Positions 824 to 29,736 of a stretch of 29,736 nt of DNA are shown here, one piece after another. This DNA comes from Candidatus Hydrogenedentota bacterium (GTDB taxonomy: Bacteria; Hydrogenedentota; Hydrogenedentia; Hydrogenedentales; JACPGD01). The notes beneath the pieces were generated by a model. The model saw nothing but the letters and a program-made list of their open reading frames with translations. It searched no databases and had not been told where the DNA came from. The stretch is taken from contig JACPGD010000517.1 in NCBI GenBank assembly GCA_016182645.1, positions 1 to 29,736 of the forward strand, written 5' to 3'. The translations under genes and the position numbers were made by a program. Positions within the stretch are counted from its first letter, which is position 1, and each line of letters begins with the position of its first letter.

Positions 824-838
824 CACCCCCCGCATTCC

Positions 839-1000: not shown

Positions 1001-1017
1001 CTCAAAAGAACTCCTTG

Positions 1018-1731: not shown

Positions 1732-2322
1732 ATGAGACCGATGGGAAAGAAGGTAATTCGGAGTCTGTCCCGGATTTGCCCCTTGCTTGTGGGTTTCTCA
1801 CTGGCAGTAGGCGTCTTCTTCGCAGGTCACCATTTTTCGAGGGTTGGGTTGCCGAGGGTGGCATCAGAGATTCGCTTCGCTGATGGAACTGTCGCGCTTC
1901 TGACAACCACATTTAGCGGCACGCTCGAGCCTTTTATCGTATCTTTCTACGTGCAAGAGCCTGGAATGGCTTGGGTTTGGTACTACATTGACCATCAGGC
2001 CTTTTTAGGTTTCGCAAAGGCGTCTTTAGAGTCTACCGGGGACATCATTAGCATATCTGTTGACGGTGTTTCGCGGGCAAGATACGATGTCAGGAAGAGG
2101 GAACTTTACCGTGATGGAAAGCTTCGCAAACCTCTCATCTTGACCGATGGTTCTCCCTTTGAGCCGTATTCCCAACAAATGGTTGCACGCTCTGTGGAAA
2201 GTCGGGAGAATGACGCAGAGGCATCTGCTTTCTGCTTACTTCCGCGCAAGTACGGGCCCTCCCAAGAAGTCCAGGATCAAAATGGGAAACTAGGGACGCT
2301 ACCCATATTTCGGGGAAACTAG
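1732..2322 (+). CDS. hypothetical membrane-anchored protein (196 aa, N-terminal hydrophobic segment)
   Basis: ATG at 1732. The N-terminus ICPLLVGFSLAVGVFFAG is hydrophobic. Third-position GC is visibly lower than in surrounding genes. The stop TAG (2320-2322) lies inside a 30-bp tandem duplication. The ATG overlaps the stop of an upstream small ORF as ATGA. Confidence 0.55.
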   Translation: MRPMGKKVIRSLSRICPLLVGFSLAVGVFFAGHHFSRVGLPRVASEIRFADGTVALLTTTFSGTLEPFIVSFYVQEPGMAWVWYYIDHQAFLGFAKASLESTGDIISISVDGVSRARYDVRKRELYRDGKLRKPLILTDGSPFEPYSQQMVARSVESRENDAEASAFCLLPRKYGPSQEVQDQNGKLGTLPIFRGN

Positions 2323-2353
2323 GGGGAAACTAGGGACGCTACCCATATTTCGG
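2284..2353. repeat. tandem duplication of 30 bp (GGGAAACTAGGGACGCTACCCATATTTCGG) separated by an 11-bp partial unit
   Basis: Copy 1 is at 2284-2313 and copy 2 at 2325-2353. The unit GGAAACTAGG occurs 3 times. The duplication contains the stop codon and last 9 codons of the 1732-2322 CDS. Confidence 0.9.
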
Positions 2354-2417
2354 AAAGATGAAGCCCCAAATTGAACTCTGCTGTGGCCCGGTCCCCTTGA
2401 CCGTGCCACTCCCCCGA

Positions 2418-2610
2418 CCGTCAGGTCTCCTCCTCTTCTTGCCGCCGCCCCTTCCCCCTCTGCCATGGGCGCAGGGTGAGCGGAGAAGGCCGCCATGGTC
2501 ACCGGGCCGGTCCCACCAACCACCGCGTTGGTATCGAACTGCAGGGTGAGCAAAGAAGGCTGCCATGGTCACCGGAACGTGGCCCCAACCACCGCGTTGG
2601 TTTCGAACTC
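2418..2610. repeat. 18-nt motif CCGTCAGGTCTCCTCCTC (2418-2435) followed by a 70-bp unit repeated in tandem twice (2471-2540, 2541-2610; ~88% identity)
   Basis: Direct comparison of the two units (GCAGGGTGAGC..GCCATGGTCACCGG..CCAACCACCGCGTTGGT.TCGAACT). The 18-mer recurs exactly on the opposite strand at 7599-7616. Confidence 0.85.
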
Positions 2611-2750
2611 GGAGCCGGCGATCCGATCTCAAAAAACGCTAGAATTATTGGATATTTCCTGAATTATCTCTATTGTCCACTGAGTACCCCTTGTTTCGCA
2701 AAACCACTCCCCGCCCCGCTCCCGCCCTTTTCACACCTTCCGCATTCTCT

Positions 2751-2778
2751 TGGAGTCTGGAGTCTGGAGTCTGGAGTC
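2751..2778. repeat. heptanucleotide tandem repeat TGGAGTC x4
   Basis: Direct reading of the sequence. It is intergenic, 45 nt downstream of the 3' end of the minus-strand operon. Confidence 0.9.
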
Positions 2779-2823
2779 CGATGAGAACTTGCCATGGCCA
2801 GCACATTCCTTTCCTGTTGTTTC

Positions 2824-4266
2824 CTACTGCTTCATTCCTAATTGCTCCGGTTTGATGGGTGGGGAATAGCTGGGCATGCTGGCGTTGGGGGCGAGGACGT
2901 AGACGCGCGCATCGCCCAGCAGCGCGATGCAGGTGCGGCCCTTCCCCGCTAGGTCTTCGGTGAAGAGCACCTCCCGGAGCGGGGCATCGAACCGGAACTT
3001 GGCCGTGGGGGTATCGTCGAAGCCCTGCTCGCCATAGAGCCACACGGCGTATTCCTCCGCGGTGCGGCTACAGCCAAAATCGGTCCGCGTGTCCCCGTTG
3101 AAGTCGGCGAATACCAGGTGTTTCAAGGGGGCTTCGGAAGGCATCTCGAGGTACCACGACAAGGGCGCCTGGAGTGAAAGCGTGCTCGCGGCGCGCGGGT
3201 CGAAGCGCTCCTTTTCCGGCACGTACAAGTGCACGCGCAACAGGAGCGGCCAGGCGCCGCTGACCGCCGCGCGCGTCAAGGCGTTCACGGTGATGCTGGC
3301 TTCCGCCGGCGACCAGAGCAAGAGATCCGCATAACTGTCTCCATTGAAATCCGGCTGCCGCAATTGCCGCGTCACCAGCATGCCCGGGTACCGCCGGGCC
3401 GGGCCGGCGCGGAATTCCTGGGCGCCGGCATCACCCGTGGCCTGGGGCGCGCGAATCCGCACGAGCAGATCGCTGAACGCCGCATCGGCCGCGGCGTAGA
3501 GGGCACGTTCCTGGAGCAGGGCTTCTTCGCGCAAGGGAAACCAGGGCCAGGCCTCCGGCGGCATGGCGGCGGCCTCCACCATTTGGCGCGGCGTACCCAT
3601 GCGTCGTGCCACGCCTTCCGCCTCGAGCGGCTGGAGTTCCCCGGGCAACTCCGGCGCATTGGCCACCACGCTGTTGACCCGCATCTCCAACGATCCCGGT
3701 GGTCCGATCTGCGGCGGGTTCGAGGCCCGGCTGCTGAATGGTTCGCCATAGCGCGGCTGCTTCACGGCCGTGGCGGCGAGGGGGAAGTTATCGAGCAAAT
3801 CCCCGGCAGCGCTGCGCAGTTCGAGGGCCGTGTCCGTGGGCAGCGCCAGCGCGGGAACGTCCACGCGCGGCACCACCAGCACATGCAGAAACGGCTGGGT
3901 GGCCGCATTGGCGAACTGCGTGTGCAGGGAAAAAAGATCCGTGCCGTCCGGCGAGGAAGGGGTCGGCAGTCCATAGCGCACCAGGGCATCGCCCGCCACG
4001 CTGACGATCTCGCTGCGCCCGTCCCCGTTCAGATCCGCTATGTCCACCGCCGTCGTACCCGGGCGCAGATTCACCTCATAGGAGGAGTCGGGCCTGGAAT
4101 CCTGAAAGACTGTCAGGCGGAGTCCATCCAAGACGAACAATTCCGCGGGCCCCGCCGGTTCCACCTTCGCGGTGAAAAAGCGGGCTTCCGCACTGGGTAG
4201 GGGAAACTCCAACCGATCAAAGGCGTCCGCGGACAGCAACGCCAGGATGAGTGGCAGCAGCGTCAT
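2824..4266 (-). CDS. secreted FG-GAP/VCBS-like calcium-binding repeat protein (480 aa), fourth gene of the operon
   Basis: Internal ATG at 4266 gives a signal peptide MTLLPLILALLSADA. The longer ORF-track N-terminus is Arg-rich overlap junk. There are three D-x-N-G-D-x-x-x-D-[LIV] motifs (ADLNGDGRSEIVSV, PDFNGDSYADLLLW, ADFNGDTRTDFG). The start overlaps the upstream stop as ATGA (4263-4266). Confidence 0.75.
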   Translation of the reverse strand: MTLLPLILALLSADAFDRLEFPLPSAEARFFTAKVEPAGPAELFVLDGLRLTVFQDSRPDSSYEVNLRPGTTAVDIADLNGDGRSEIVSVAGDALVRYGLPTPSSPDGTDLFSLHTQFANAATQPFLHVLVVPRVDVPALALPTDTALELRSAAGDLLDNFPLAATAVKQPRYGEPFSSRASNPPQIGPPGSLEMRVNSVVANAPELPGELQPLEAEGVARRMGTPRQMVEAAAMPPEAWPWFPLREEALLQERALYAAADAAFSDLLVRIRAPQATGDAGAQEFRAGPARRYPGMLVTRQLRQPDFNGDSYADLLLWSPAEASITVNALTRAAVSGAWPLLLRVHLYVPEKERFDPRAASTLSLQAPLSWYLEMPSEAPLKHLVFADFNGDTRTDFGCSRTAEEYAVWLYGEQGFDDTPTAKFRFDAPLREVLFTEDLAGKGRTCIALLGDARVYVLAPNASMPSYSPPIKPEQLGMKQ

Positions 4267-5741
4267 GACGCCTCCTCCCGCGAGAAGTAGACCAGCGAAC
4301 CGGGCGTCTGTGCCTGCTGGGCCTGTTTGGGCTGGACCAGGAGATCGCCGCGGCCATCGTGGTTGATGTCGTACACCCGGATGTCCGCCGGCCCCGGCAC
4401 GCTCCAGGTCGTTTCGAGGGCGCCGCCCAGACGGCCTGGCGCACTCAGAAACAGCCGCACGCGTTCCGGCTCCTCTCGGACCACGACGTCTTTCCAGCCA
4501 TCGCCATTGAAGTCGCCGGTGAAATTGATCAATTCGCCCAGTTGATAGCGTTGAAACATAGGCCCGTTGAGATAGGGCGCCGCATCCAGATTGATGCGCA
4601 CCTGGCCTTCCACGGCGGGCGCCTTGGAGAACCCCCCGCTCTCTTGAGCATAAACACGCAGGACATGATCGAGCACGGAGCGGGTGAGTAGTTGCGCGAT
4701 CATCTCGCGCGGCCCGCCCTGGAACAGCGTGGCTGATTCCGAGACCAAGTCCTTGTCGCCGTCCCCGTCCACGTCCAGGAAGGAACAATGCGGGCGTAAG
4801 CGCTGGAAGGAAGGTTCGCGCACCACTTTGAACGTGGCGCCGCCATCGAGCGTGGCCCATGTTTCGTAGACCGGGAGCGGATACGCGGAGGCTTTGGATT
4901 CCTGCCACACGCCGCCGGCATAGTCGATCACATCGTCATTGTTCAAACGGCAGGGACGCAGGAAGGCTGGCATGGACGGCGTCGCCTGGGTCGAGCTCGC
5001 CGCGGGGTCCAGTTCCCAGGCCTGGCCGGCCGCCACGCTGTAGTCCGTTCGGACGTAGCCCCGGCTGGAGGCCGTTTCCAGGTCCTGGCTGAGGACGCTG
5101 ATCCGATTCGCTTGAAGGAAGAACCTGGCGGACATCTCCCGGGCCGGAAAGAGGAGACGGCGTCTGGGTGCCGGCCAGAGTTGCTGTTGTTCCTCTTGCA
5201 CCAAATCCAGCGGGGGCAGAATGCGCCAGACGGCACGTTCCGCATAAACTTCGCTCTCCTGGTTACGAGAGAAAACATGAATGCCCGCGGGATCGACGGC
5301 GATCAGTTCGGGGTCGCCGTTGCCATCGACGTCGTGGAGATACCGCTGCAAGCGCCGCTTTTCTTCCGAGAGGTCCGGCGGTTGAGCCGGCCAGGACAGG
5401 GGTTGGCCCACGACCGTTTCCCAGCCTCCCTGCGTCCATCGATAGATAGCCAGACTATTCTGGCTTCTCAGGTAGAGCGCACCCCTCCAGACATCAATGT
5501 CGGCGGGAGCGTCCGGTTGCGGCAGTGGCACGCGCCGTTCCGGGGGGAATCCGCCCGCCTCCTGGAACAGAACCATGCCGGCGAGCACCAGATCGTCGGC
5601 GCCATCTCGGTCGAGGTCGGCCTGGACAAAATTCGTGGCGGCTTCCGCGGTGAGGGGATCGACCACGCCGACGTAAACGGCGGGGATTTCCTGGGACGTG
5701 AAGCGCAGGGCGGCCAGACAAAGCAGGGGCAAGCACATCAT
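4263..5741 (-). CDS. secreted FG-GAP repeat (integrin-alpha-like beta-propeller) protein, 492 aa, third gene of the operon
   Basis: Start MMCLPLLCLAAL... (ATG at 5741) overlaps the permease stop as ATGA. Five spaced Ca-binding-type repeats are present (DLDRDGADDLVLAG, DVDGNGDPELIAVD, DVDGDGDKDLVSE, DFNGDGWKDVVV, DINHDGRGDLLV). Confidence 0.75.
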   Translation of the reverse strand: MMCLPLLCLAALRFTSQEIPAVYVGVVDPLTAEAATNFVQADLDRDGADDLVLAGMVLFQEAGGFPPERRVPLPQPDAPADIDVWRGALYLRSQNSLAIYRWTQGGWETVVGQPLSWPAQPPDLSEEKRRLQRYLHDVDGNGDPELIAVDPAGIHVFSRNQESEVYAERAVWRILPPLDLVQEEQQQLWPAPRRRLLFPAREMSARFFLQANRISVLSQDLETASSRGYVRTDYSVAAGQAWELDPAASSTQATPSMPAFLRPCRLNNDDVIDYAGGVWQESKASAYPLPVYETWATLDGGATFKVVREPSFQRLRPHCSFLDVDGDGDKDLVSESATLFQGGPREMIAQLLTRSVLDHVLRVYAQESGGFSKAPAVEGQVRINLDAAPYLNGPMFQRYQLGELINFTGDFNGDGWKDVVVREEPERVRLFLSAPGRLGGALETTWSVPGPADIRVYDINHDGRGDLLVQPKQAQQAQTPGSLVYFSREEAS

Positions 5742-6529
5742 GCGGAGAGGTTTCGGCGCTGAAGCGCAACAATGGCCAAGGCGGTACAGACGGCCATGAC
5801 GGCAAAGGAGGTGCCGAGGACATACCACACGCCGGGGAACCAATCCAGGGCAATGGCCTCACTGCGGCTGCTGAATACGGCCCAGGGCTTCTCGAGGTAC
5901 GTGGAAAAGACGAAGCGCTCGATGCCCAGGGGATATTTGACCAGGTCAATCAGAATCCATCCTCCGACCGCGCCGGAAGCCGCCGTCATGGGGCTCCTGA
6001 AGAAGGAGGAGAACATGAGCGCCAGCGCGACGCCCGCCCATTGCGGGGCCAGGCTCAACAGCAGTCCCAGGAGGTAGGCATTGCTCATCTCTTCCCGCGT
6101 GAAGAGCAATTCGCCGCCATAGGTAACGCCCATGAGTTCGCCGAGGAGCCACGCCAGCAGCCAACTACTCGCGCCAACTATCAAGGTCAACAGCAGGGCA
6201 TAGGTCATGCCATTGAGTAGTTTGGCCAGGACAAACTCGTGCCTGCGCACGGGCCGGATCAGGACTTGCCGGATCGTGCCGGACGCAAGTTCGGTGGACA
6301 CCAACCCCGCCGAATAAATCAGCAGCAGCAAGAACCCGAGGAAATTCAGGGCCACCGGCGTAATATAAGCGATGAAGCCGTAGTCGCTGACCTCGTCTTT
6401 GCTGATGGGGTAGAGGAGCGGGGCGCAGACGACCGCGATCAGGACAAGGACCGGCCCCATGGCCGAGTATTTGTAGTGGATCACCTTGTACATCTCGAAG
6501 AGATAGGCTTGAACAATGCGCCTGGTCAT
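5738..6529 (-). CDS. ABC-2 family transporter permease (263 aa, ~6 TM helices)
   Basis: Start MTRRIVQAYLFEMYKV at 6529 overlaps the ATPase stop as ATGA. It shows the multi-TM hydrophobic profile typical of ABC-2 (NosY/GldF-like) permeases. Confidence 0.8.
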   Translation of the reverse strand: MTRRIVQAYLFEMYKVIHYKYSAMGPVLVLIAVVCAPLLYPISKDEVSDYGFIAYITPVALNFLGFLLLLIYSAGLVSTELASGTIRQVLIRPVRRHEFVLAKLLNGMTYALLLTLIVGASSWLLAWLLGELMGVTYGGELLFTREEMSNAYLLGLLLSLAPQWAGVALALMFSSFFRSPMTAASGAVGGWILIDLVKYPLGIERFVFSTYLEKPWAVFSSRSEAIALDWFPGVWYVLGTSFAVMAVCTALAIVALQRRNLSA

Positions 6530-7811: not shown

Positions 7812-10800
7812 ATGCAGCGCTTAGGGGTTTTCGCTTGGGCGGCGGGTGTAACGGGCGCCGTCATTGCCACCGTGGTGGTGGCCGCCGCGGTGTTCCAGCA
7901 AGAGGCGCTGCCGGCGCCGGATCGGCTGGACGGGGCTGGGGCACCATCGGAGACAGCGGTCCCAACGCCCGGGACGAAACCACTGCCGGCTGCGCTCCAG
8001 CGTAAGCTGAAGAAAGGCCCAAAACCCCACGATCAGCCGGCCGAAGCGCAGGAATTCTATGTGCAGCAACGTATGGGCGGCGCGGGGCCGCTGGACTATG
8101 CCTTGCTCGAGGCGGCCGCCGCGGAGGCGGAGAAACTGCCGTCGGCCAATGTATTCGCCGAGAAGGCCGCCGGGGACATTAGCGGTTGGGAGGAACTGGG
8201 TCCCGGCAACATTGGGGGACGTACGCGAAGCCTGCTGCTTGACCCCTTGAATCCGGACATTATGTACGCCGGCGGTGTGGCGGGCGGCGTCTGGAAATCC
8301 ACGGATGGCGGCGGCAACTGGGACCCGCTCAATGATTTGATGGACAACCTCGCCGTGACGACGCTGGCGTTTGAGCAGCAAGGGTCGCCCACCACCAATA
8401 CCGACGTGATATACGCGGGTACGGGCGAGGGCTATTTCAACGGCGATGCGGTGCAAGGCGCGGGGATCTTCAAGAGCAGCAACTCTGGCGCTACCTGGAC
8501 GAGGCTGGCCAGCACCAATAATGCAGACTTCTTTTTTGTGAACAAACTGGTGGCCAGCCCCAATAATCCGCAGGTACTGTACGCGGCGACGGCCACGGGC
8601 ATCTGGCGTACCAACAATGGGGGCCAAACCTGGACACCGGTCCTCCGCAATAATGGGGCGGGCGGAACGAGCGGCTCCGCGGTAAGGACTTTCGTTGGCT
8701 TCACCGACATCGAGATTCGTACCGACCTGACCACGGACACGTTGTTCGCAAGCAATGGAAGTTTCATCGCTCCGCCCAACTTCCCGGCGGACGGCATCTA
8801 TCGCTCTTTGGATGGCGGGGACTCCTGGTCTCGTGTTTTCACCCGGGCGGACATGGGCCGATCCGATCTGGCCATAGCACCGAGCAATCAAAATGTCATT
8901 TATGCCTTGACGGCGGACGCTCAAAATGGTGAGCGGTTGCTGAACGTGTTTCGGAGCATGGATGGCGGCACGACGTGGGCGCCGCGGATTTCAGGCACCT
9001 TTAACCGGCATAACGCGGACTGGCTGTTGCTCACGAATCCGCTCATTGCCAATCTGGGCCCGTGCTTCGGCGATTTCGACGGGGAATTCAACCAGGGCTG
9101 GTATGACAACATTATCGCCGTTGCGCCCCACAATCCCGACATCGTGTTTGCGGGCGGTATCGACCTGTTTCGGTCCGACAATGGCGGCGCCAACTGGGGC
9201 ATCATCAGCTACTGGTATGAGCCGATTGCCGGGACCGCCTTCGCGCACGCGGACCATCACGCACTCGTATTTCATCCGGCGTGGAATGGCGCCTCGAATC
9301 AGGTCCTTTTTAATGGCAGTGACGGTGGTGTCTATCGAACGAATAATGCGCTGGCCGCCGTGGCGTCCGGCGCCAATGATGGGGTGTGCAGCGATTCGAC
9401 AGAGGTGGTGTGGAACAGCTTGAACAACAGTTATGGCGTGACGCAGTTCTACCACGGACGGCCTTACCCAGCGCCCACGGAACGGTACTTTGGGGGTACG
9501 CAGGACAACGGCACGCTGCGCGGCGCGGACAATACGGGATTGAATGGCTGGAACGAAATCAACGGCGGTGACGGCGGCTATGTCAGCTTCCACCCGGGCA
9601 ACCCGAACATCCTCTTCGCCGAGAACACCGGCGCCAGTATGCAGCGTTCGGTGAATGGCGGCTCAACTTTTGATGATATTGTGTCGGGGGCGGGGCAAAT
9701 CAATTTTGATATCGACCCTGGCTTCATGTTCATCACTCCATTCCGCCATGACCCGAGCAATCCCGACCGGATCTGGTATGGCGGCTGGTTTGCCTGGCGC
9801 TCGAACAATGCCGCGAGCGCCTCCTCGGCAACCGCCGTGCGCTGGACCCAGGCCAGTGCAGTGACCCCCGGCGATGGGAGCATCTCGGCCTGGGGCATCG
9901 ATCCCAACAACAGTAACAAGGTCTACGTGGGTCTTTCAGACGGTGTTGTTGCGCGGACCACCAATGCCACAACATCCACCAGCGCCACCAACTGGGCGGA
10001 CATTACGCCACCCTTCACCGGGTTCGCCTACATCAGTTGGATCGAGGTGGATGGCAACGACACGACCGGCGGAACGGTGTATGTGACCAACTCGGTGTTC
10101 GGCTCCCAGCACGTTCTTAAGTCAAGCAACGGGGGCAATGCCTGGACGGACATCACCGGGAACCTGCCGGACATTCCCGTCCACTGCCTTGTCGTGCAAC
10201 CGGGGGCGGCAAGCAATTTGTTCATCGGGACCGACCTTGGCGTTTTTGTGTCGAAGATTGGCGGGGGGAATTGGACCCGCATGAACTCAAATGGTTTTGC
10301 GAACGTCGTGGTCGAGTCGCTCGAATTTCAGGACGCCGAAACCCTCTATGCCTTTACGCATGGGCGCGGGGCTTTCCGGGCGGCGGTACAGCCACCGGCC
10401 GGCGGCGAGGGTGAAGGGGAAGGCGAAGGCGAAGGCGAGGGAGAAGGCGAAGGTGAGGGGGAAGGGGAAGGCGAAGGGGAAACGGTGATCGTCGATGTGC
10501 TGACTGATGTGGCCGATGGCGACACGTCGTCGGTCCAGGCACTGGGTCTGAATCGCGGTCCCGATGGTAAGATCTCGCTGCGCGAAGCCCTCCTGGCCAC
10601 GAACAACACCGGTGGCCCGAATGTCATCACCTTCTCTGTCAATGGCGCTATCCGGCCGTCGACGCCCTTGCCGTTCCTCAGCGACCAGAGCGGCGGCACC
10701 CAAATTCAGGGGGGCAATACGATTACGCTTAATGGGATCTTGGCGCCCGCGGCCACGGACGGTCTCGTGCTGAGTTCGGGCGCTAACGCCGTCATTGGCT

Positions 10801-12434
10801 TGAGCATTATCGATTTCACGGGCAATGGCATCAGTATCCTGGGCGATCAGAACATTGTCCAGGGGTGTTTCATTGGCATCCGCCTGGATGGCTCGACCCT
10901 GCAAGGCAACGATCTGAATGGGATAGCCCTCTCGGGCGGCAGTGGCAACCTGATCGGCGGCAGTTCCACTCAGCAGCGCAACGTGATATCTGGCAATGGG
11001 CTAGGGATCCTGATCAATGTTGGCGCACAAGGCAATATCATTCAGTCGAACTTTGTGGGCACGACGGCCAGCGGGACGGCCTCGGCGGGCAACCTCTCGC
11101 ACGGTATACTGCTGGAGGAGGCGGGAACGTCCGACAATATAATCGGCGGAGTGGGCGTCGGGAACGTGGTGTCGGCCAATGGCGGTGAAGGCATTATCGT
11201 GAACGATGCCGGCACGGGCAACCAAATCCAGGGCAATTTCTGCGGAACCAACGTTACGGGCGCCGCGGGCCTGGGCAACACGGAGTCCGGCATACTCGTG
11301 GACAATACGACCGGATGCCTGATTGGTGGGGCCGTGGCGGGACAGGGCAACCTGGTGGGGGGCAATGGCTCCGACGGCATCGCCCTGGGAGGCGACGCTT
11401 GTGAGGGCAATGTAATCTCAGGCAACCGCGTGGGCGTCAATCTGGCAGGGACCGTGGCGATCCCGAATGCCAATGAGGGGATTGTGTTGTTCGGGGGGGC
11501 GCACAACAATACCATCGGCGGTTCCACCGCGGGCGCGGGCAACCTGGTTTCGGGAAATATCTTCAATGGCATCCTGCTGGCCAGCCGGACCACCGCCAAC
11601 CTGGTGCAGGGGAACATCGTGGGCTTGGGCGCGGACGGCACAACGCCTCTTGGCAATTTTGAAGACGGTATTGGCCTGGCCAATGGGGCGAGCAATAACC
11701 TGATCGGCGGCGAAGGCACGGGCGCGGCCAACGTGTCCAGCGCGAACAGGGGCGCCGGCGTGCACGTGAATGGATCGAACACATTGAACAACACCATCAG
11801 CCGCAACAGCATCTATAACAATGCCGGCCTGGGAATCCGGCTGAGCGAGGGCGGCAACGGCAACATGGGCGCGCCGGTCATTTCCGGGCTGGGCTCGGTG
11901 GATGGGACCGCGCCTCCCGATAGCACCGTCGAGATTTTCGTGGACGGCAGCGACGAGGGACGCATCTACCTGGACACGGTCACCGCCCAGAACGATGGTA
12001 CGTTCTCGAGCGACGAGCCGGTGGGCGCCTATGTCGGCATGTTCGTGACCGCCACGGCGCGCAATGCGGCAGGCAGCACCTCGATATTCAGCGTGCCGCT
12101 GTTGATTTCGGGAGTGGGCGAGGGTGAAGGCGAGGGCGAGGGCCGCGGCGACCACAGTGCCGACCTGAACAAGAATGGCCGCATTGAATTGTCCGAGTTG
12201 CTGCGCCTGGTGCAATTCTACAATTCAGGGATCTTTCATTGTCAGGGCGGTACGGAGGACGGCTACAATCCGGGTCCCGGCCCACAGAATTGCACCACGC
12301 ATGACAGCGATTACGCCGATCAAGACTGGCGCATCAACCTCTTCGAATTGCTCCGGCTTGTCCAGTTCTACAACAGCAACGCCTACTTCGAATGCACCGG
12401 TACGGAGGATGGCTACTGCCCCGGGCTGGGGTGA
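7812..12434 (+). CDS. giant modular cell-surface protein (1540 aa): N-terminal anchor, BNR/Asp-box (sortilin/GH74-like) beta-propeller, (GE)n linker, CSLREA motif + right-handed parallel beta-helix, second GE linker, duplicated dockerin-like Cys-containing C-terminal module
   Basis: - N-terminal hydrophobic anchor.
- At least 8 S/T-x-D/N-G-G-x-x-W BNR motifs (KSTDGGGNW, KSSNSGATW, RTNNGGQTW, RSLDGGDSW, RSMDGGTTW, RSDNGGANW, KSSNGGNAW).
- GEGEGE x12 at aa ~865-890.
- ISLREALLATNN then repeated N.I.GN....GI.L beta-helix rungs.
- Two C-terminal repeats (DLNKNGRIELSELLRLVQFYNS...C..GTEDGY.PG). Confidence 0.85.
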   Translation: MQRLGVFAWAAGVTGAVIATVVVAAAVFQQEALPAPDRLDGAGAPSETAVPTPGTKPLPAALQRKLKKGPKPHDQPAEAQEFYVQQRMGGAGPLDYALLEAAAAEAEKLPSANVFAEKAAGDISGWEELGPGNIGGRTRSLLLDPLNPDIMYAGGVAGGVWKSTDGGGNWDPLNDLMDNLAVTTLAFEQQGSPTTNTDVIYAGTGEGYFNGDAVQGAGIFKSSNSGATWTRLASTNNADFFFVNKLVASPNNPQVLYAATATGIWRTNNGGQTWTPVLRNNGAGGTSGSAVRTFVGFTDIEIRTDLTTDTLFASNGSFIAPPNFPADGIYRSLDGGDSWSRVFTRADMGRSDLAIAPSNQNVIYALTADAQNGERLLNVFRSMDGGTTWAPRISGTFNRHNADWLLLTNPLIANLGPCFGDFDGEFNQGWYDNIIAVAPHNPDIVFAGGIDLFRSDNGGANWGIISYWYEPIAGTAFAHADHHALVFHPAWNGASNQVLFNGSDGGVYRTNNALAAVASGANDGVCSDSTEVVWNSLNNSYGVTQFYHGRPYPAPTERYFGGTQDNGTLRGADNTGLNGWNEINGGDGGYVSFHPGNPNILFAENTGASMQRSVNGGSTFDDIVSGAGQINFDIDPGFMFITPFRHDPSNPDRIWYGGWFAWRSNNAASASSATAVRWTQASAVTPGDGSISAWGIDPNNSNKVYVGLSDGVVARTTNATTSTSATNWADITPPFTGFAYISWIEVDGNDTTGGTVYVTNSVFGSQHVLKSSNGGNAWTDITGNLPDIPVHCLVVQPGAASNLFIGTDLGVFVSKIGGGNWTRMNSNGFANVVVESLEFQDAETLYAFTHGRGAFRAAVQPPAGGEGEGEGEGEGEGEGEGEGEGEGEGETVIVDVLTDVADGDTSSVQALGLNRGPDGKISLREALLATNNTGGPNVITFSVNGAIRPSTPLPFLSDQSGGTQIQGGNTITLNGILAPAATDGLVLSSGANAVIGLSIIDFTGNGISILGDQNIVQGCFIGIRLDGSTLQGNDLNGIALSGGSGNLIGGSSTQQRNVISGNGLGILINVGAQGNIIQSNFVGTTASGTASAGNLSHGILLEEAGTSDNIIGGVGVGNVVSANGGEGIIVNDAGTGNQIQGNFCGTNVTGAAGLGNTESGILVDNTTGCLIGGAVAGQGNLVGGNGSDGIALGGDACEGNVISGNRVGVNLAGTVAIPNANEGIVLFGGAHNNTIGGSTAGAGNLVSGNIFNGILLASRTTANLVQGNIVGLGADGTTPLGNFEDGIGLANGASNNLIGGEGTGAANVSSANRGAGVHVNGSNTLNNTISRNSIYNNAGLGIRLSEGGNGNMGAPVISGLGSVDGTAPPDSTVEIFVDGSDEGRIYLDTVTAQNDGTFSSDEPVGAYVGMFVTATARNAAGSTSIFSVPLLISGVGEGEGEGEGRGDHSADLNKNGRIELSELLRLVQFYNSGIFHCQGGTEDGYNPGPGPQNCTTHDSDYADQDWRINLFELLRLVQFYNSNAYFECTGTEDGYCPGLG
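10404..10484 (+). repeat. in-frame imperfect hexanucleotide repeat (GGN GAR)x~13 encoding the Gly-Glu linker; shorter second tract at 12113-12142
   Basis: Direct reading of the sequence. The unit length of 6 keeps the frame if copy number changes. Confidence 0.85.
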
Positions 12435-15129: not shown

Positions 15130-16758
15130 CTAGGTTTCCCGGTGCGCGGCCGGGTCAACCTTAGTCTTCTCCGCGGGCGCGGGAGCGCCAGTGGTCTTAA
15201 AGACGGCCGTCTTTCCCTCGTCGTCGACCAGCTTGGCCAGGTATTCCGGCACCTCAATGCCGGCAATATCGCGCATCGTGTGGAGCATCGGCGGCAGGAC
15301 CTGCGCCATGCTGCTGAGGAATTGCGCCGTGCTCCCTTTCCCGTCGCCCGCCTGGCCATTGCCGTGCGCGCCGTTGTCCCAAACGACAACCTTGTCGAAT
15401 TTGATGTTGCTAATGGCCTTGGCGGACTGTTCGGCGAGATTGTCCAGGTGTTCGAGCATGAGCATCTGGAAGGCCTGGTTCGCGCCGCCGCACGCATCGA
15501 CAATCGCGCGCAGTCCTTCCGCCTTCTGGCGCAGCATCTCGTATTGACCGCGCGCCTGGGCTTCCAGCCGCGCAAAAATGGCGGAAGCCTCGCCCTCCGC
15601 CTCGATCCGGCGCTTCTGGGCTTCGGCTTCCGCCTCGACGATGGTACGCGCTTTTTGCGCCTTGGCGGGCGCCTCGAGTTCGGCCCGGCGCTCCATTTCG
15701 ACGCGCTCCGCGTCGGCCAGGGCAGCTTTCGCGAGCGCCTTATTGCGCGCTTCGAGCACGGCAGCCTTCGAGACCTCGGCCTGCGTCTCCGCGAGCTGGA
15801 ACGCTTCGGCTTCCTTCACCTTTAAGTTTGCGGTGGTCCCCGCAATGGCCGCCTTGGACAGGTTTTCCCCCTCGATCGCGCGCGCATTGGCAGAGGCGAC
15901 CGCAATACGCATCTCGCGTTCGGCCTCTTTCACTTGCGCGTCCCGTTGGAACGCCGCGGTTTGCTCGCCGATCTTCTGTTCCTTCTCGAGATCGGCAATA
16001 CTGACCGCCTGCTCCCGCTCCGCCTGGCGAATACCGACTTGCTTGTTCTTGTTCGCCTCGGCGACGCGCACTTCTTTCTCACGCACGTTTTCCGCCACGC
16101 GGATTTCGCCCAGTTTCTCCTGTTCAGCCACGTCAGCCCGCGCCTGTTGCACAGCCTCAGACGCGGCTTTCTTGCCGATGGCGTCGATGTAGCCGGACGC
16201 GTCGGTGATGTCCGTGATGTTCACGTTAATGAGCACGAGGCCGATCTTGCGCAGTTCCGGCTCGAGCGAAGCTTGCACCTTGTTCAGGAAATGATCGCGG
16301 TCGCGATTGATTTCCTCGATACGCATCGAAGCGATCACCTGACGCAACTGCCCAAAAATGATGTCCTCGGCCTGTTTCTTTATCTGCAACTGGGTCAGGC
16401 TGAGCAGGCGGATGGCCGCGTTGTTCATTGTGACGGGGTCGGTGCCAATCGCGACGGTGAAAACGCTGGGCACGTGGACGCGGATGTTTTCCATGGAGAG
16501 GGCGTCTTTGAGCGGCACCTCGATCTGAATGGGTTCCAAGCTGAGGAAAGCATAGTCCTGCAGCAAGGGGATGATGAACGCGGCGCCCCCGTGAATGCAG
16601 TGCGCGCTGTCGCCGCCGCCCACCTTGCCGTAGATCACCATGATGCTGTTGCTGGGACAGCGTTTGTAACGCCTCGCCAGCAGCATGATGAAGCTGAGCA
16701 CCACCATCACCGACACGATGATTACTGTCAGGACCCACGGTATCAACATGAGGGACAC
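15130..16758 (-). CDS. flotillin / SPFH (band-7) family membrane protein, YqiK/FloT-like, 542 aa
   Basis: N-terminal TM followed by an SPFH domain, then a long Ala/Glu/Lys/Arg-rich coiled-coil (EAEREMRIA...AEAEAQKRRIEAEGEA), typical of flotillins. Confidence 0.9.
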   Translation of the reverse strand: MSLMLIPWVLTVIIVSVMVVLSFIMLLARRYKRCPSNSIMVIYGKVGGGDSAHCIHGGAAFIIPLLQDYAFLSLEPIQIEVPLKDALSMENIRVHVPSVFTVAIGTDPVTMNNAAIRLLSLTQLQIKKQAEDIIFGQLRQVIASMRIEEINRDRDHFLNKVQASLEPELRKIGLVLINVNITDITDASGYIDAIGKKAASEAVQQARADVAEQEKLGEIRVAENVREKEVRVAEANKNKQVGIRQAEREQAVSIADLEKEQKIGEQTAAFQRDAQVKEAEREMRIAVASANARAIEGENLSKAAIAGTTANLKVKEAEAFQLAETQAEVSKAAVLEARNKALAKAALADAERVEMERRAELEAPAKAQKARTIVEAEAEAQKRRIEAEGEASAIFARLEAQARGQYEMLRQKAEGLRAIVDACGGANQAFQMLMLEHLDNLAEQSAKAISNIKFDKVVVWDNGAHGNGQAGDGKGSTAQFLSSMAQVLPPMLHTMRDIAGIEVPEYLAKLVDDEGKTAVFKTTGAPAPAEKTKVDPAAHRET

Positions 16759-16761
16759 TCC

Positions 16762-17385
16762 TTATTCTTGCGCCTTGACTTCCACGGTGCTTGGGGTGAC
16801 CAGCGCTACAATTTCCACATCGTGGCCCGTCGGGATGGCCGGGCCGCGGGTAATCGCCTCGAGTTCCATGCTGCGGTGCTGCACGGTGACCGTGACCTTG
16901 CCCGCGCCTTGCTGTTGGCCCGGAATGGCGAGATAGCAGGTCGCGGGGAGCCCCACTACATTTTGGAGCTGGACCGTCCCTTCGTCCTGGAGCGAGAGCA
17001 GCAACTGCATGAGCCAGGCCACCACCAGCATCGCCGTCATGCCCGCCGCCACGGCGCACACGAACACGAAGAACAGTGGAAGATTTCCAGCCGCCGCGAT
17101 ATTGCCACCCAATCCGAAGAAGGTGATGGCCGCCACGACGGAGCGGAAGCTGATGATATTGAAGGCCTGGGACGACTCTTGATAGCCATGGCCAACCGAG
17201 GCGTGCGCGGCATCGGCGTCGCCCAGGTGCACCCCGTCGAGCGGGATGGCGCCATGGATGGCATCGAAGGCAGATTCATGGCCGGAATCCCAGCCGAACA
17301 AGGAAAGCAGGAGCAGGAGGAGGAGTATGGCGCCGCCCCCCACCGCGCACAACGTGAAAACCAATATCATGGCCTGACCCTCCAT
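16762..17385 (-). CDS. NfeD-like membrane protein (YqiJ-like) with C-terminal OB-fold, partner of flotillin
   Basis: Hydrophobic TM segments followed by a beta-rich C-terminus (GKVTVTVQHRSMELEAITRG...EIVALVTPSTVEVK). The stop is 3 nt upstream of the flotillin start; this pairing is conserved. Confidence 0.8.
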   Translation of the reverse strand: MEGQAMILVFTLCAVGGGAILLLLLLLSLFGWDSGHESAFDAIHGAIPLDGVHLGDADAAHASVGHGYQESSQAFNIISFRSVVAAITFFGLGGNIAAAGNLPLFFVFVCAVAAGMTAMLVVAWLMQLLLSLQDEGTVQLQNVVGLPATCYLAIPGQQQGAGKVTVTVQHRSMELEAITRGPAIPTGHDVEIVALVTPSTVEVKAQE

Positions 17386-21974: not shown

Positions 21975-22643
21975 CTAATTCTGCAAATGAAGGGTGGTCT
22001 CCGATTCTGCCCGCACCACGTGCTCGTTATTCGGCCCATATCCCTTCGACGATTCCACGCGCACATAGAACGTCGTGAAATAATTGTTGTCGCTGGCGTT
22101 CGGCCGCAATTGGAAAGTCAGGGCGCTGATATCGTTGACGCCGCCGGTCACCTTGGTTTCCCCCGACTGCTCCCGCACGATCCGGCGTGTCAATATGCCG
22201 TCGCCATTGGCGTCTTCGCCCTCGTCCAGTTTGCCGTTTATCGGTGCATCATTCAGCCCGTCCTCATTCTCGTAGCGGTACACGATCGGGTCCGAGACGG
22301 TAATCATTGTGGCGTCGTTCGTGGGGACCGGGAGGACGAAGCTCACGGACAGACCGTCCCCTGAGACCGTTACGGGTATAGCGCCCGGCGGGACAAAGTT
22401 CGGATCCATTTGCGCCAGCGTCTTGTCGGTGTATGCGGAGCGGATCTCGCTGGCGATGGCCATCATGACGTCACGCACGTTGGCCTGCACTTCGCCCTTC
22501 GCCTGGGTCAGCGAGGTGGCTTCGGTCGAGCCTTGCAGCACCACGAAACTGAGGGCGCCGACAATCGCGAGGATGGCGATCGCAAACGTGATTTCGAGCA
22601 GGCTATACCCTTGTGTCGCCATGGCAGTGGTCCCCTTATTCAT
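21975..22643 (-). CDS. type II secretion/type IV pilus minor pseudopilin (GspJ-like position), 222 aa
   Basis: N-terminus MNKGTTAMATQG|YSLLEITFAIAILAIVGALSFV has the canonical prepilin cleavage/methylation site with Glu+5. An alternative start ATG at 22622 has AAGGGGA 7 nt upstream. M1 overlaps the upstream stop by 8 nt. Confidence 0.8.
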   Translation of the reverse strand: MNKGTTAMATQGYSLLEITFAIAILAIVGALSFVVLQGSTEATSLTQAKGEVQANVRDVMMAIASEIRSAYTDKTLAQMDPNFVPPGAIPVTVSGDGLSVSFVLPVPTNDATMITVSDPIVYRYENEDGLNDAPINGKLDEGEDANGDGILTRRIVREQSGETKVTGGVNDISALTFQLRPNASDNNYFTTFYVRVESSKGYGPNNEHVVRAESETTLHLQN

Positions 22644-23154
22644 TGTTCACCACCGTGACGAGTTCCGCCTGCATGGGGCGGCCGCGCCTATCCAGCCAGG
22701 CAGACCGGACAACAACCTGCACGGGCACGTCATTGCCGCCTGCGGCGTCGCCCGCCATATTCAAGACCAGCACTTCGAGGGTGTGGTTGCGCAGCTCTTC
22801 ATGTCCACTCGACGATACCAGGTAGTCCGTCCAGCCGCTGCTGTTATTCTGATTGACCCAGGTCAGCAGATCGGCCGGGAAATTGTCCTTGAAGTCGTCG
22901 CGCCGATCGCGCAGCGCACTGATCACCGCCCGGCAGGATTGCAGCCCTTCAATGCGCTGTTCCTGCATGTCCATGGAAAGATAGAAAGACATCAACGCCT
23001 GCGCGGTGACGCCGATGACCGCCGCAAAGATGGCCACGGCGAGCACCACCTCGAGGAGGGTCATCCCCGCAGTCGCTTCGCCGCCCGCTCCGCGCGTTCG
23101 GGCATGCAGCCATTTCGCCACTGCGGGTTTTGAATTCACCACCGGTCTCGACAT
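22636..23154 (-). CDS. type II secretion/type IV pilus pseudopilin (GspH/I-like position), 172 aa
   Basis: ...GGEATAG|MTLLEVVLAVAIFAAVIGV is a prepilin site with Glu+5. Start chosen at ATG 23154 (AAGGA ~10 nt upstream), giving an unusually long 30-aa leader; the true start is uncertain. Confidence 0.7.
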   Translation of the reverse strand: MSRPVVNSKPAVAKWLHARTRGAGGEATAGMTLLEVVLAVAIFAAVIGVTAQALMSFYLSMDMQEQRIEGLQSCRAVISALRDRRDDFKDNFPADLLTWVNQNNSSGWTDYLVSSSGHEELRNHTLEVLVLNMAGDAAGGNDVPVQVVVRSAWLDRRGRPMQAELVTVVNNE

Positions 23155-23381
23155 CCAGACATCCTTTCCGGCCTTTCGGCCACCCTGCCCTGCCTGAATA
23201 CGGAACCAGACCATTCTGCCATGAAGTCAAGAATAAAGCAAGTGGCACGAGTAGGCCCGATCTATAACAAATGCTTATAAAACAATGACTTACAAGACAT
23301 TTTCTGCGAGACTCCGGGAGATCGGGTCACACGATAATCAGGCCCGCCGGCCGAACTCCGGCTTTCCCGTGAGCTGGGACG

Positions 23382-25110: not shown

Positions 25111-25875
25111 CTATCCAAACATCTGGAATATCACCAGGTCCAATTCGATAAACAAGTGCGCCAGGAATGGGAGCAGCACATTGCCGCGGCGCATGGCCCA
25201 GCGGGTCAGGAAGATAGAAAAGAGCACCATGCCGATGGCCTCCCATCCAGGCTTCTGCAGGTGGTAGACGCCTTCAAACACGGGGAGAAGGAACCAGCCA
25301 TAGCGCGGCCAGGTCATGGATACGCGATCCAGCAGCACGTATCGGTGCATGAACTCCCACCCCGGAAGCCAGGACACGATCCACGCCAACTGCGCGAATA
25401 AGAAGGCGCTGCGCTGCGCCGCGGGGACATTGCCCAAGTATAGATCGCGGAACTCTGGCATGAATGGAATGAACAGCATGATGAGCATGCCGACCCCGGC
25501 GATCACCAGGAGCATCATTACATCATGTATTTTCCACCGCTTGAAGGACAGCGCACTCCACACCATGTTCGGCAGCGCAAACAGGAAGGGCGCCAGGAAC
25601 CAGGTGAAGAACTTAAACCAGTCAAAATTGCGCATCGCGCCTTCGTAGAGGAAACTGAAGGCGCCTTTGGGCAGGCCCAAGCCTTGCAGGAACTGACGCG
25701 CCTCACGCGGTCCCCAGTCGAATTGCGACCAGTCCGTCCCCCAGCGTACGTGGAGCGTTGCCAGCGCGTCCACGGTCAGTACGGCGGCCACGTACAAGAC
25801 AACCAGCCACGTCAGCCAGCGGCTAGTGCGCATGCGCTCGCGCAGGCGTATCTGGACGGCAAGATCATCGGGCAA
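25111..25875 (-). CDS. polytopic integral membrane protein, function unknown (~254 aa)
   Basis: Multiple hydrophobic helices rich in Trp/Phe (WLTWLVVLYVAAVL, FFTWFLAPFLFALP, LLVIAGVGMLIMLFIPF, LFAQLAWIVSWLPGW). M1 overlaps the nth stop by 11 nt; an alternative start is at M15. Confidence 0.6.
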   Translation of the reverse strand: MPDDLAVQIRLRERMRTSRWLTWLVVLYVAAVLTVDALATLHVRWGTDWSQFDWGPREARQFLQGLGLPKGAFSFLYEGAMRNFDWFKFFTWFLAPFLFALPNMVWSALSFKRWKIHDVMMLLVIAGVGMLIMLFIPFMPEFRDLYLGNVPAAQRSAFLFAQLAWIVSWLPGWEFMHRYVLLDRVSMTWPRYGWFLLPVFEGVYHLQKPGWEAIGMVLFSIFLTRWAMRRGNVLLPFLAHLFIELDLVIFQMFG

Positions 25876-26542
25876 CTTTTTTCCCCTCGGCGGAGTGGGG
25901 GAACGGACACAGGTCGTTGACGGGACATTGCGAGCATTTGGGACCGCGGGCTACACAGATCGCGCGGCCATGGAACACCATCAGATGTGAGAACTGCGTC
26001 CAGAGCTTCTCCGGCCAGACTTTCATGAGGTCCTGCTCGATCTTCACGGCGTCCGGCTGGCGCGTAAACCCGAGCCGGTTGGAAACGCGCGTGCAGTGCG
26101 TATCCACGATAACTGCCGGCACACCAAAGCACTCGCCCAGCACCACGTTTGCTGTCTTGCGGCCCACGCCCGGCAGCGCCACCAATTCTTCCATCGTCCC
26201 CGGCACCCGGCCCTCGTGTTTCTCGACCAACTGGCGGCACGCGCCCACAATACTCTTTGCTTTCGCGCGAAAAAATCCGCACGGTTTGATGTCGCTCTCC
26301 AATTCCGAGAGCGGGACCGTCAGGAAATCCGCCGGTTTCCGGTATTTCTTGAACAGGTCCTTCGCCACGATATTCACGCGCGCGTCGGTCGATTGCGCGG
26401 CGAGTATGGTCATAATCAAGAGTGTGAACGCATCCTTGTAGTCCAGGGTGCAGTGCGCATTCGGATAATACGCCGCGAGCCGTGCATAGACCTCCTTCGC
26501 CCGTTCTTGCGCCGCAGCGCGCCCCCGTTTCACTTGCGCCAT
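25865..26542 (-). CDS. nth: endonuclease III (DNA glycosylase/AP lyase)
   Basis: HhH-GPD motif LVALPGVGRKTANVVL, the catalytic Lys/Asp context, and the C-terminal 4Fe-4S cluster loop C-x6-C-x2-C-x5-C (CVARGPKCSQCPVNDLC). The start MAQVKRGRAAAQERAKEVYARL aligns with E. coli Nth residue 1. Confidence 0.9.
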   Translation of the reverse strand: MAQVKRGRAAAQERAKEVYARLAAYYPNAHCTLDYKDAFTLLIMTILAAQSTDARVNIVAKDLFKKYRKPADFLTVPLSELESDIKPCGFFRAKAKSIVGACRQLVEKHEGRVPGTMEELVALPGVGRKTANVVLGECFGVPAVIVDTHCTRVSNRLGFTRQPDAVKIEQDLMKVWPEKLWTQFSHLMVFHGRAICVARGPKCSQCPVNDLCPFPHSAEGKKVAR

Positions 26543-28254
26543 GCGAGCAATTCCTTCGTGCTCAGCGTGTTCAGCACGTCTTTTGCCTCCAGCCATCCCT
26601 TGCGCGCCATGCTGACGCCGTAGCGCACATTGTCCAGCCCGTTCACGCTGTGCGCGTCCGGGCCAATCGAGAACATGACGCCTTTCTCGCGCCCGCGGAT
26701 CACCTGCCGCCAATCCAGATCGAGCCTGCGGCAGTCTGCGTTGATTTCGATGGCCACCTGGTTCGCCAGGCAGGCGTCAAAGACCTTGTTCATGTCCAAC
26801 GTCAACCCCGCGCGCGCCAGCAGCAGCCGCCCCGTGGCATGGCCCAGAATCGTGATGTAGGGGTTTTCGATGGCCCGCACCACGCGCGCCGTCGCTTCTT
26901 TCTCCGGCATGTCCAGCTTGTTGTGCACAGAGGCAACGATCACATCGAAAGTTTTCAGCACGTCCTCATCGTAGTCGAGGTCCCCATTGATGCGGATGTC
27001 CGACTCGATCCCCTTGAGAATGCGGAAGCCGCGCGCTTTCTTATTCAAGCGGTCGATTTCTTCGTGCTGCTTCCGGACACGCTCCGGCCGCAGCCCGCCG
27101 GCATAGGCGGCCGTCTGGCTGTGGTCCGTGATCACGAGGTATTCATAGCCAAGCTTCCGCGCCGCCAGGGCCATCTTTTCCAGCGTGTCCTTTCCGTCGC
27201 TGTACGTGCTGTGGCAGTGGATCAGCCCGCGCAAGTCGGACAACTCCACCAGTTTTGGCAGCCGTTCCGCCTGGCACTCGCCGTAATCTTCCCGCAACTC
27301 CGGGGGGATGCAGGGTAGTCCCAGTTCCTTGTAGATGTCCGTCTCGAACCCGCAGGCCAGGCTCTGGTCGTGCTCATCAAACAGCCCATATTCGTTCAGC
27401 TTCAGCCCGCGCTCCCGCGCGCGCTGGCGGAGCGCCACGTTGTGGTCCTTGCTCCCCGTGAAATGCAAGAGCGCAAACGGAAACTGCACCTGGTCCACCA
27501 CGCGCAGGTCCGCCGCAATCCCGCTGTCCAGCACCACGCTCGCCTTTGTCTCGCCTTGCCCGGTCACCTGCTTCACGTCCGGCGCGCTCACGAACCACTT
27601 CATCACCTCGGCGGGCCGTTCGCTCGAGGCCACCAGGTCCACGTCCTTGATCACTTCCTTCCCGCGCCGGACACTCCCGGCAATCTCGACGCTCGTGACC
27701 GCCTCGCATTCGCGCAGGTGATGCAGCAGTTCCTCGGCGGCGTATTCTGCCTTATTCAGCAGGTGTTGGCCGGTGTGCTCCCGCGCAAAGCCAATCCCTT
27801 CCAGGATCTTGTCCTGGAGTTTCTCGCTGAACCCCTTGAGCGACAATAACTGCCCGCTCTGACAGGCCTCCTCGAGCTTCGCCAGCGAATCGATCCCCAG
27901 TTCCTCATACACCTGCTTGATGCGTTTCGGCCCGAGACTCGGAATGCCGAACAATTCGTACAGCGAGACCGGAAACTTCGCCCGCAATTCCTCGAGGAAC
28001 CCCAGTTTCCCGGTGGTGACCAACTCCTCGATCTTCTGTTCCAGCGCCTCGCCAACCCCCTTCAGCTCGCGCAACCGCTTCTCGCGCACCATATCCTCGA
28101 TATCGGCGTCGAGTTGCTCGATCACCCGGGCGCCATTGGTGTACGAGCGCACCTTGAACGGGTTCTCCCCGCACAATTCCATCAGCAGTGCGATCTCATT
28201 CAGGGCGGCAGCCACTTCTTTCTTGTTCACCGCGGTCCTTTCAGGGGATGCCAT
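26530..28254 (-). CDS. polX: family X DNA polymerase (Pol beta-like) with C-terminal PHP phosphoesterase domain
   Basis: N-terminal HhH region (NKKEVAAALNEIALLMELCGENPFKVRSY) and the Pol X nucleotidyltransferase motif (GSVRRGKEVIKDVDLV). The C-terminus has PHP His/Asp motifs (IHCHSTYSDG, ITDHS, SVHNKL, GHATGR). Confidence 0.9.
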   Translation of the reverse strand: MASPERTAVNKKEVAAALNEIALLMELCGENPFKVRSYTNGARVIEQLDADIEDMVREKRLRELKGVGEALEQKIEELVTTGKLGFLEELRAKFPVSLYELFGIPSLGPKRIKQVYEELGIDSLAKLEEACQSGQLLSLKGFSEKLQDKILEGIGFAREHTGQHLLNKAEYAAEELLHHLRECEAVTSVEIAGSVRRGKEVIKDVDLVASSERPAEVMKWFVSAPDVKQVTGQGETKASVVLDSGIAADLRVVDQVQFPFALLHFTGSKDHNVALRQRARERGLKLNEYGLFDEHDQSLACGFETDIYKELGLPCIPPELREDYGECQAERLPKLVELSDLRGLIHCHSTYSDGKDTLEKMALAARKLGYEYLVITDHSQTAAYAGGLRPERVRKQHEEIDRLNKKARGFRILKGIESDIRINGDLDYDEDVLKTFDVIVASVHNKLDMPEKEATARVVRAIENPYITILGHATGRLLLARAGLTLDMNKVFDACLANQVAIEINADCRRLDLDWRQVIRGREKGVMFSIGPDAHSVNGLDNVRYGVSMARKGWLEAKDVLNTLSTKELLAWRK

Positions 28255-28431
28255 GGCACGGCTGATTGCCGCGCCGAAGATTCTTGTTGTCCATTATGCC
28301 CCGTCCTCGCCGCGGCATTCACCTCGCTGCCGTCTCATGCTGGTGTGGACGTCAGATTGCCCGTCATCTCACCGAACCTGTACATTGTGGGCGGGGTATC
28401 GTACCGGGTAGTTGCATGAGGTGGGGTAGCA

Positions 28432-29433
28432 GTGGCCAAGATTCAAAAATATCTGATTCTCTTCTTTGCAGTGATCATCCTTGCTGTTCTTGGCGTGGTG
28501 GGGTTCGCCTACCGCATGGGGACGCAATTGAGCGCGCCCGCCAACGTGGCCATCGGCAATCTTCCCAGCGATCTTGCCGGCGAATCTGTGCATATTCCAA
28601 GCACATCCGGATCGCGGCTTGCGGCGTGGGTACTGCCCGGTGAGGCGAAGCGGGGAGTTGTAGTGCTGATGCATGGCGTTCGAGCCAGCCGCCGCAGCAT
28701 GCTGGATCGGGCACGATTTCTATCAACCGCAGGTTTTAGCGTGGTCCTATTTGGGTTCCAAGCCCATGACGAGAGCCCGGGCGAATTCATCAGCTTCGGA
28801 TTTCTCGAGAGCCGCGATGCAATAGCGGCGGTTCAATTCGCACACACGCGTTTTCCCGGTGAGAAGATCGGAGTCATTGGTGTTTCTCTTGGGGGAGCGG
28901 CCGCATTACTTGCGCAACCGCCACTCGATGTGGAGGCGGCCATACTGGAGTCCGTGTATCCCAGCATTGAGGAAGCCATTGCTGACAGGCTACAGATTCG
29001 GCTTGGCGCACCAGGCGCATGGCTGACGCCCCTGTTCATCGCGCAATTGAACCTCCGCCGCGGCATTCCGAGCAGCGAACTTCGGCCCATCGAGCGCGTG
29101 AAAGATCTGCACGCCGCGAAGCTCTTCATTGTTGGCGAAAAAGACAGGCACACAACGCTCGCGGAATCCCGACGCCTGTTTGAAGCGGCCACCGAGCCGA
29201 AGGCGCTCTGGGTGATTTAAGGCGCAGCCCACGAGGACTTCTACGCTCGGCTGAGGGAAGTCTACAAGGAAAGAGTCCAGACATTTCTTGATGCACACTT
29301 AAACAGCGGGCCTATTCTCCAAATGCCCTCGCCACCTGATTCAGGAAGAGCATCGCTTAGAGGAGCAAAAGAACCAGATACGCGGCAGGACACAACAGAC
29401 CCACAGCGTGGGTTGGCAGTACTCAGCCTATGA
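28432..29433 (+). pseudogene. membrane-anchored alpha/beta hydrolase interrupted by an in-frame TAA (29218-29220) between the catalytic Asp and His
   Basis: GTG start with GAGGTGGGG upstream. N-terminal TM. Nucleophile elbow GVSLGGA and acid residue in FIVGEKDRH. The ORF ends ...KALWVI*, but the same frame continues GAAHEDFYARLREVYKERVQTFLDAHL... to TGA 29431-29433, supplying the missing G-x-x-H-x-D catalytic His. Confidence 0.7.
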
Positions 29434-29600
29434 ACCCAAAACTCTCAAACCACGTGGACCAAAGATTGGGGGCTTGACTCGACGATTACTCGTTATCCCG
29501 GAGGTTATGAGTCAATCACGCTGACGGAGGCACGTGAAGCTGTCAGAACGGCCAGAAAAGTACGGACCGTCGTTCGCCGAATGTTCAACAGCAGCGCAAT

Positions 29601-29736
29601 CTAAACTCTGCCGACCTCACCAAGCAGGGTTGCAAGGAAATCCGCCGCCAACTGATACACTCCTGGCGACGTTGATTCGCGCGGGCCGGCCACGTTGAGC
29701 ACGCGCACGCGATTGTCCTTCAGCCACGCGACCACC
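29601..29736 (-). CDS. 3' end of a minus-strand gene running off the window (C-terminal 45 codons), unknown function
   Basis: An open frame enters from the right edge, ...[44 protein letters not shown], with stop TAG at 29601-29603. Too short to assign a family. Confidence 0.3.

Follow-up and report, generated by a model that had tools for sequence, protein, structure and literature searches.

The locus raises the question of why an in-frame stop codon stands between the catalytic histidine of an alpha/beta-hydrolase gene and the other two residues of its triad. The window, that is, the whole stretch of DNA that was analysed, is an entire contig of 29,736 bp from a Candidatus Hydrogenedentes MAG, with the gene about 500 bp away from its end (Table 1). 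According to a preliminary description of the sequence, a TAA directly follows the residues ...EPKALWVI, the serine and aspartate codons precede it, the histidine codon comes after it, and the same frame runs on to a TGA. Direct reading of the sequence bore out all of these statements: the 262-aa product ends in ...EPKALWVI, and behind the TAA the frame reads GAAHEDFYARLREVYKERVQTFLDAHLNSGPILQ... for 70 further codons, the first part of which aligns colinearly with the family C-terminus.

Table 1. Coordinates of the hydrolase locus and of its neighbouring genes.
Feature	Position	Strand	Remarks
Truncated alpha/beta-hydrolase ORF	28432..29220	+	GTG start, 262 aa, then TAA
Nucleophile Ser152 in GVSLGG (G-x-S-x-G elbow)	codon 28885-28887	+	5' of stop
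Acid Asp238 in GEKDRH, after strand beta7	codon 29143-29145	+	5' of stop
Premature in-frame TAA, followed by G	29218..29220	+	family alignment position 263
Untranslated C-terminus remnant, 29 codons, GAAHEDFYARLREVYKERVQTFLDAHLNS	29221..29307	+	colinear profile match
Catalytic His267 (CAC)	29230-29232	+	fourth codon 3' of TAA
Open non-homologous tail of the old frame	29308..29433	+	ends at TGA 29431-29433
PolX gene	26530..28254		divergent, upstream of hydrolase
Endonuclease III-like gene			divergent, upstream of hydrolase
cpYpsA gene	29601 onward		convergent, downstream; complete in contig L001

Besides the serine and the aspartate, the truncated ORF contains an N-terminal membrane helix (residues 2-33) and the HG oxyanion motif (LMHGVR). 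When the parts before and behind the stop were joined, the sequence reached 44.7 bits with Pfam Hydrolase_4 (PF12146), for which the cut-off is 27, and matched Abhydrolase_6 and Abhydrolase_1 more weakly. The gene is best explained as coding for a membrane-anchored alpha/beta-fold serine hydrolase, belonging to the 'FrsA/DUF1100-like' clade of Hydrolase_4. This family membership holds by descent, the 262-aa product being an incomplete member without the histidine and without the C-terminal helix.

A database search returned 1,067 homologues, the best of which, two near-identical copies aside, were 49-58% identical over the whole catalytic domain. Most are unnamed or designated 'FrsA (DUF1100 family)' or 'alpha/beta fold hydrolase'; Acidobacteriota/Pyrinomonadaceae MAGs are the source of several. 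In an alignment of the best 119 of these 1,067 homologues, all proteins (266-327 aa) run uninterrupted through the stop position; what the shorter ones lack is N-terminal, not C-terminal, sequence, and for most homologues the last residue falls at query positions 291-308. Neither Ser152 nor Asp238 varies (119/119), and His267, in the family context W-V-[VI]-x-G-A-x-H-x-D-L, is present in 118. The FrsA/DUF1100-annotated hydrolases (PF12146, PF12697, PF00561), mostly from Acidobacteriota/Pyrinomonadaceae metagenomes, have in common with the window gene the N-terminal hydrophobic helix, the HG motif, the G-x-S-x-G elbow, the aspartate and the histidine (the latter present in the window in DNA only), and their C-terminus is colinear with the frame behind the stop. 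In contrast to the window gene, which has TAA at position 263, every one of these 119 relatives is intact, so that here an in-frame stop cuts short a domain that all relatives have conserved, while homology continues behind it.

The continuation of homology was quantified with a family profile built solely from the 119 homologues, which scored 378.6 bits for the N-terminal fragment and 410.2 bits (+31.6) for the joined sequence. The 29 residues encoded behind the stop fell on profile positions 259-287, straight after position 257, with the stop itself at 258, and on their own they reached 12.9 bits, whereas none of 200 shuffles exceeded -1.1. On account of this colinear match and of the comparison with shuffles, the post-stop codons are taken as the gene's own former C-terminus. 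The residues A265, H267, D269, Y278, F285 and L290 are retained, and neither a second stop nor a frameshift, i.e. no further decay, was found in the ORF. A read-through product would comprise 333 aa, with homology only to about residue 292; the last ~41 aa are non-homologous, and their DNA probably represents the ancestral C-terminal tail or plain intergenic sequence.

A genuinely split arrangement of two genes, in which the histidine fragment is made as a separate polypeptide, had been put forward in the preliminary description as the case that would speak against an interrupted gene. A close orthologue, described below, does end at the same position, as this arrangement would have it, but no ATG, GTG or TTG occurs in frame from the stop up to 29323, which is already beyond the homologous part and well behind the histidine. 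The 29-aa piece, devoid of a start, has no route to expression, and no homologue is split, making this arrangement barely conceivable.

The position of the stop within the fold was examined by modelling the read-through sequence with AlphaFold2, the homologue alignment serving as input (mean pLDDT, 89.4; pTM, 0.84). The model has a canonical alpha/beta core whose last strand spans residues 257-261 (ALWVI), with the stop two residues later, the histidine in the next loop, and a terminal helix (residues 270-290), encoded after the stop, that packs on the sheet. The pLDDT drops under 70 at about residue 291 and under 50 at residue 319, the tail (~293-333) being predicted as disordered. Since the stop falls just after the last beta-strand, the 262-aa product is devoid of the histidine loop and of the terminal helix. 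From what is known of Ser-His-Asp triads, we infer that its hydrolase activity is lost, and the product is probably unstable. The best solved relative by sequence profile was the Pyrococcus furiosus esterase Pf2001 (E 2.9e-26), which was also the best fold match (5G59; Foldseek E 4.9e-20; TM 0.84 on target). Pf2001 (PDB 5G59, 5G5C, 5G5M, 5LCN) has an alpha/beta-hydrolase core plus cap, like the modelled fold, but is an intact enzyme, unlike the product of the window gene, and at 22% identity neither its substrate nor its biological role can be carried over.

The locus has probably undergone a lineage-specific nonsense mutation that made the hydrolase gene either a pseudogene or a truncated allele without function, most likely an ordinary inactivation of an already known kind and not a recoding signal. 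In such a scenario, an ancestral intact gene of the Hydrogenedentes lineage would have acquired a single-base nonsense mutation, most probably from GAA (Glu263) to TAA. Translation would then end just past the last beta-strand, with loss of the loop carrying His267 and of the terminal helix, giving a product unable to form the Ser-His-Asp triad. The event would have been recent enough for the downstream frame to be still open and recognisably homologous. Ordinary nonsense pseudogenes likewise have one premature stop, a family-typical frame, a homologous open frame downstream and a lineage-specific distribution. Unlike them, the window ORF is annotated as a normal protein, and the strain differences in its N-terminal part are synonymous-biased. 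Indeed, the 262-aa ORF bears the NCBI annotation 'alpha/beta fold hydrolase' (MBI2435627.1), and both this entry and MBI3117573.1 present it without a pseudogene flag (PGAP).

The step from GAA to TAA had already been proposed in the preliminary description, and it stood as the likeliest single step, whereas the conserved motif I-E-G-A-G-H-x-D invoked for it did not. The stop column is variable among the 119 homologues (E42 N26 S12 D12 A9 P8 G4 Q2 K2 R1 T1), and GAA is favoured because Glu is the commonest residue in this column and also the commonest that lies one mutation from TAA. Other one-step ancestors would be TCA (Ser, 12/119), CAA (Gln) and AAA (Lys). The comparison of orthologues at this codon, suggested in the same description, thus pointed to Glu in 42 of 119 sequences of a variable column, with TAA in the close orthologue. 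No orthologue between 58% and 99% identity was found in the collections searched, and for this reason a GAA ancestor is not directly demonstrable. Scans of genome and metagenome contigs gave only 40-53% identical homologues, the protein cluster at 90% has two members only, both of them from Hydrogenedentes MAGs at NCBI, and exact look-ups of the window protein gave no further contig.

A different account of the TAA, also considered in the preliminary description, is an error of sequencing or assembly, with a sense codon in the real genome. The metagenomic assembly of the contig and the closeness of the gene to its end are in line with such an error. However, the identical TAA is carried by a second contig of the same species, JACPUG010000112.1 (GCA_016192355.1; 5,539 bp; L001 in Table 1), whose positions 1-4452 align without gaps to 25285..29736 of the window with 99.08% identity and 41 substitutions over 4,452 bp. 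The presence of the same TAA in another assembly that differs at 41 other sites makes a random consensus error unlikely, with the qualification that the samples are perhaps not independent. Moreover, the other ORFs of the window all look unbroken, and substitution errors are rare in the consensus of short-read assemblies.

Readthrough of the TAA, programmed or leaky, or its reassignment, would restore a full-length hydrolase of ~292-333 aa containing His267, and had been listed as a possibility in the preliminary description. The 70 open codons downstream with their retained family residues, the constrained appearance of the N-terminal part and the occurrence of the stop in both strains are what such a reading would predict. 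Nevertheless, stop usage in the window speaks against it. The 19 coding-like ORFs end in TGA (10), TAG (6) or TAA (3). A G also comes directly behind the TAA of the other two ORFs that end in this codon (16762..17385 and 22636..23214), and the ~8,300 codons of the 18 other ORFs are free of in-frame TAA. TAA is a normal stop in the 30 kb of genome covered by the window, in which no tRNA gene was found either, and an alternative code with TAA as a sense codon, or a suppressor, was rejected on these grounds. A recoding RNA element was likewise rejected, as the 121-nt region surrounding and following the stop showed no stable structure (z = 0.22 vs shuffles) and no Rfam match was found near the stop at E <= 1. 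The stop is neither of the recodable types (UGA/UAG) nor in a weak termination context, TAA-G being the context at two genuine gene ends, and it is not conserved across diverged orthologues: it is absent in 119/119 and present only in two 99%-identical genomes. UAA is the bacterial stop codon that is terminated most efficiently and is least prone to readthrough, and we know of no bacterial genetic code that reassigns it. At the level of titles and abstracts, the literature retrieved for Hydrogenedentes with 'stop codon' contained neither term, a weak negative. Taken with the lower conservation of the post-stop part described below, readthrough has a very small probability.

Only at one place in the window, 15130-17385 on the minus strand, does a TAA separate two long ORFs of the same frame; here a 207-aa ORF (16762..17385) ends in TAA and is followed, after one codon and in the same frame, by the GTG of a 542-aa SPFH/flotillin-like ORF (15130..16758). 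The possibility of one TAA-interrupted gene was rejected in favour of two adjacent genes, as the second ORF has its SPFH/flotillin-like domain beginning at residue 36; the upstream 207-aa ORF has no Pfam match. The TAA between these adjacent ORFs therefore acts as a true terminator.

The comparison of the two strains bears on a third alternative, namely that the 262-aa protein, membrane-anchored and of alpha/beta fold but without the histidine, is maintained by selection in a non-catalytic or altered role, the stop being old. Both strains carry the stop, and the 262-codon ORF shows seven differences between them, all at third positions, of which six are synonymous and one is conservative (E168D). 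In the neighbouring PolX gene, 18 synonymous and 6 non-synonymous differences were found. Under neutrality, at least six synonymous changes out of seven have P = 0.002-0.004, and the 6:1 ratio, taken at face value, hints that the truncated ORF may still be constrained. In the tail (29308..29433), the two strain differences are both first-position and non-synonymous.

The differences are, however, unevenly distributed along the alignment. None was found in 25285-26208, 26 in 26209-27637, none in 27638-28712, seven in 28713-28983, none in 28984-29394 and eight in 29395-29506, so that clusters of 1.8-7% divergence alternate with difference-free gaps of 924, 1,075 and 411 bp (uniform-permutation p <= 0.0005). 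This clustering suggests recombination between strains or consensus assemblies in which strains are mixed. The synonymous-biased cluster, 271 bp long, may have been imported as a tract from a lineage whose gene is intact, or may again reflect a strain-mixed consensus, and this mosaic pattern explains the bias equally well as constraint on the ORF does. The TAA itself sits inside the 411-bp tract without strain differences. Because of the mosaic and of this location, the two-strain bias was not taken as proof of purifying selection.

Conservation relative to the family was also compared on both sides of the stop. Behind the stop, 9 of 15 positions (0.60) carry the residue of the family consensus vs 0.72 for the N-terminal part, whereas among the homologues the corresponding values are 0.90 and 0.85, placing the window protein in the lowest 2.5%. 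Similarly, at columns conserved in at least 90% of the homologues, deviations occur at 4 of 10 after the stop vs 11 of 100 ahead of it (Fisher p = 0.03). These small numbers, obtained with a lone divergent Hydrogenedentes member, hint at relaxed constraint behind the stop, which argues against functional readthrough. The same divergence suggests that the stop is not brand new. Of the 'fresh pseudogene' of the preliminary description, the nonsense mutation and the pseudogene agree with the uninterrupted frames of all 119 homologues and the histidine of 118, and 'fresh' has become uncertain, for a mutation sampled in two near-identical genomes only.

An intact N-terminal ORF next to a post-stop segment that diverged beyond expectation would also fit a selected truncated protein, and so could the deviation of the window protein at 15 of 110 highly conserved columns (including D108G and G113D; homologue mean, 2.7) if it meant an altered function. 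Such deviations are nevertheless expected when a lone Hydrogenedentes member is set against a clade of other phyla at <=58% identity, and the numbers are small (7 differences, 15 columns). In addition, the terminal helix of the fold is lost along with the histidine, none of the 119 relatives ends at this position, and the synonymous bias is limited to one cluster, as in an imported segment. A selected truncated protein is thus unlikely. Selection on the TAA allele in a wider sense, retaining either a non-hydrolytic protein without the histidine or a small regulated supply of enzyme through low-level UAA readthrough, is quite improbable and rests on the synonymous-biased 6:1 strain differences in the N-terminal ORF. 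If true, selection of the truncated allele or of readthrough would be a modest curiosity regarding the tolerance of the alpha/beta-hydrolase fold or the fidelity of bacterial termination, and would address no long-standing question.

The database entry deserves a flag as a probable pseudogene and should be left out of metabolic and enzyme-mining inference for this MAG; beyond annotation, the importance of the finding is small. The hydrolase gene stands alone (monocistronic), with PolX divergent on one side and cpYpsA convergent on the other, and no polar effect is expected.

Several other features of the contig were recorded. The hydrolase ORF has a GC3 of 0.62, the lowest of the 19 contig ORFs (others, 0.70-0.83), which, together with its nearest relatives being in other phyla (Acidobacteriota, <=58%), is compatible with horizontal acquisition. 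No promoter-like site was found in the region, and a single weak terminator-like site was predicted, on the minus strand; shuffled sequences gave as many. The stretch 29395-29506, with 8 differences in 112 bp, is the most variable between the two strains; it comprises non-homologous tail and spacer before the cpYpsA gene, and a weak terminator-like hairpin lies within it on the minus strand (29413-29399).

At 2824-5843 on the minus strand, two FG-GAP/VCBS-repeat ORFs (4263..5843 and 2824..4908) lie in different frames and overlap by 646 nt if each is taken from its longest start. Two adjacent genes are probable here, the second with a later start, although the ORFs may represent one large frameshifted gene. 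Finally, a 1,540-aa ORF on the plus strand (7812-12434) gave only weak matches, to Sortilin-Vps10 (BNR-like) and right-handed beta-helix families, and encodes a large protein of secreted or surface type.
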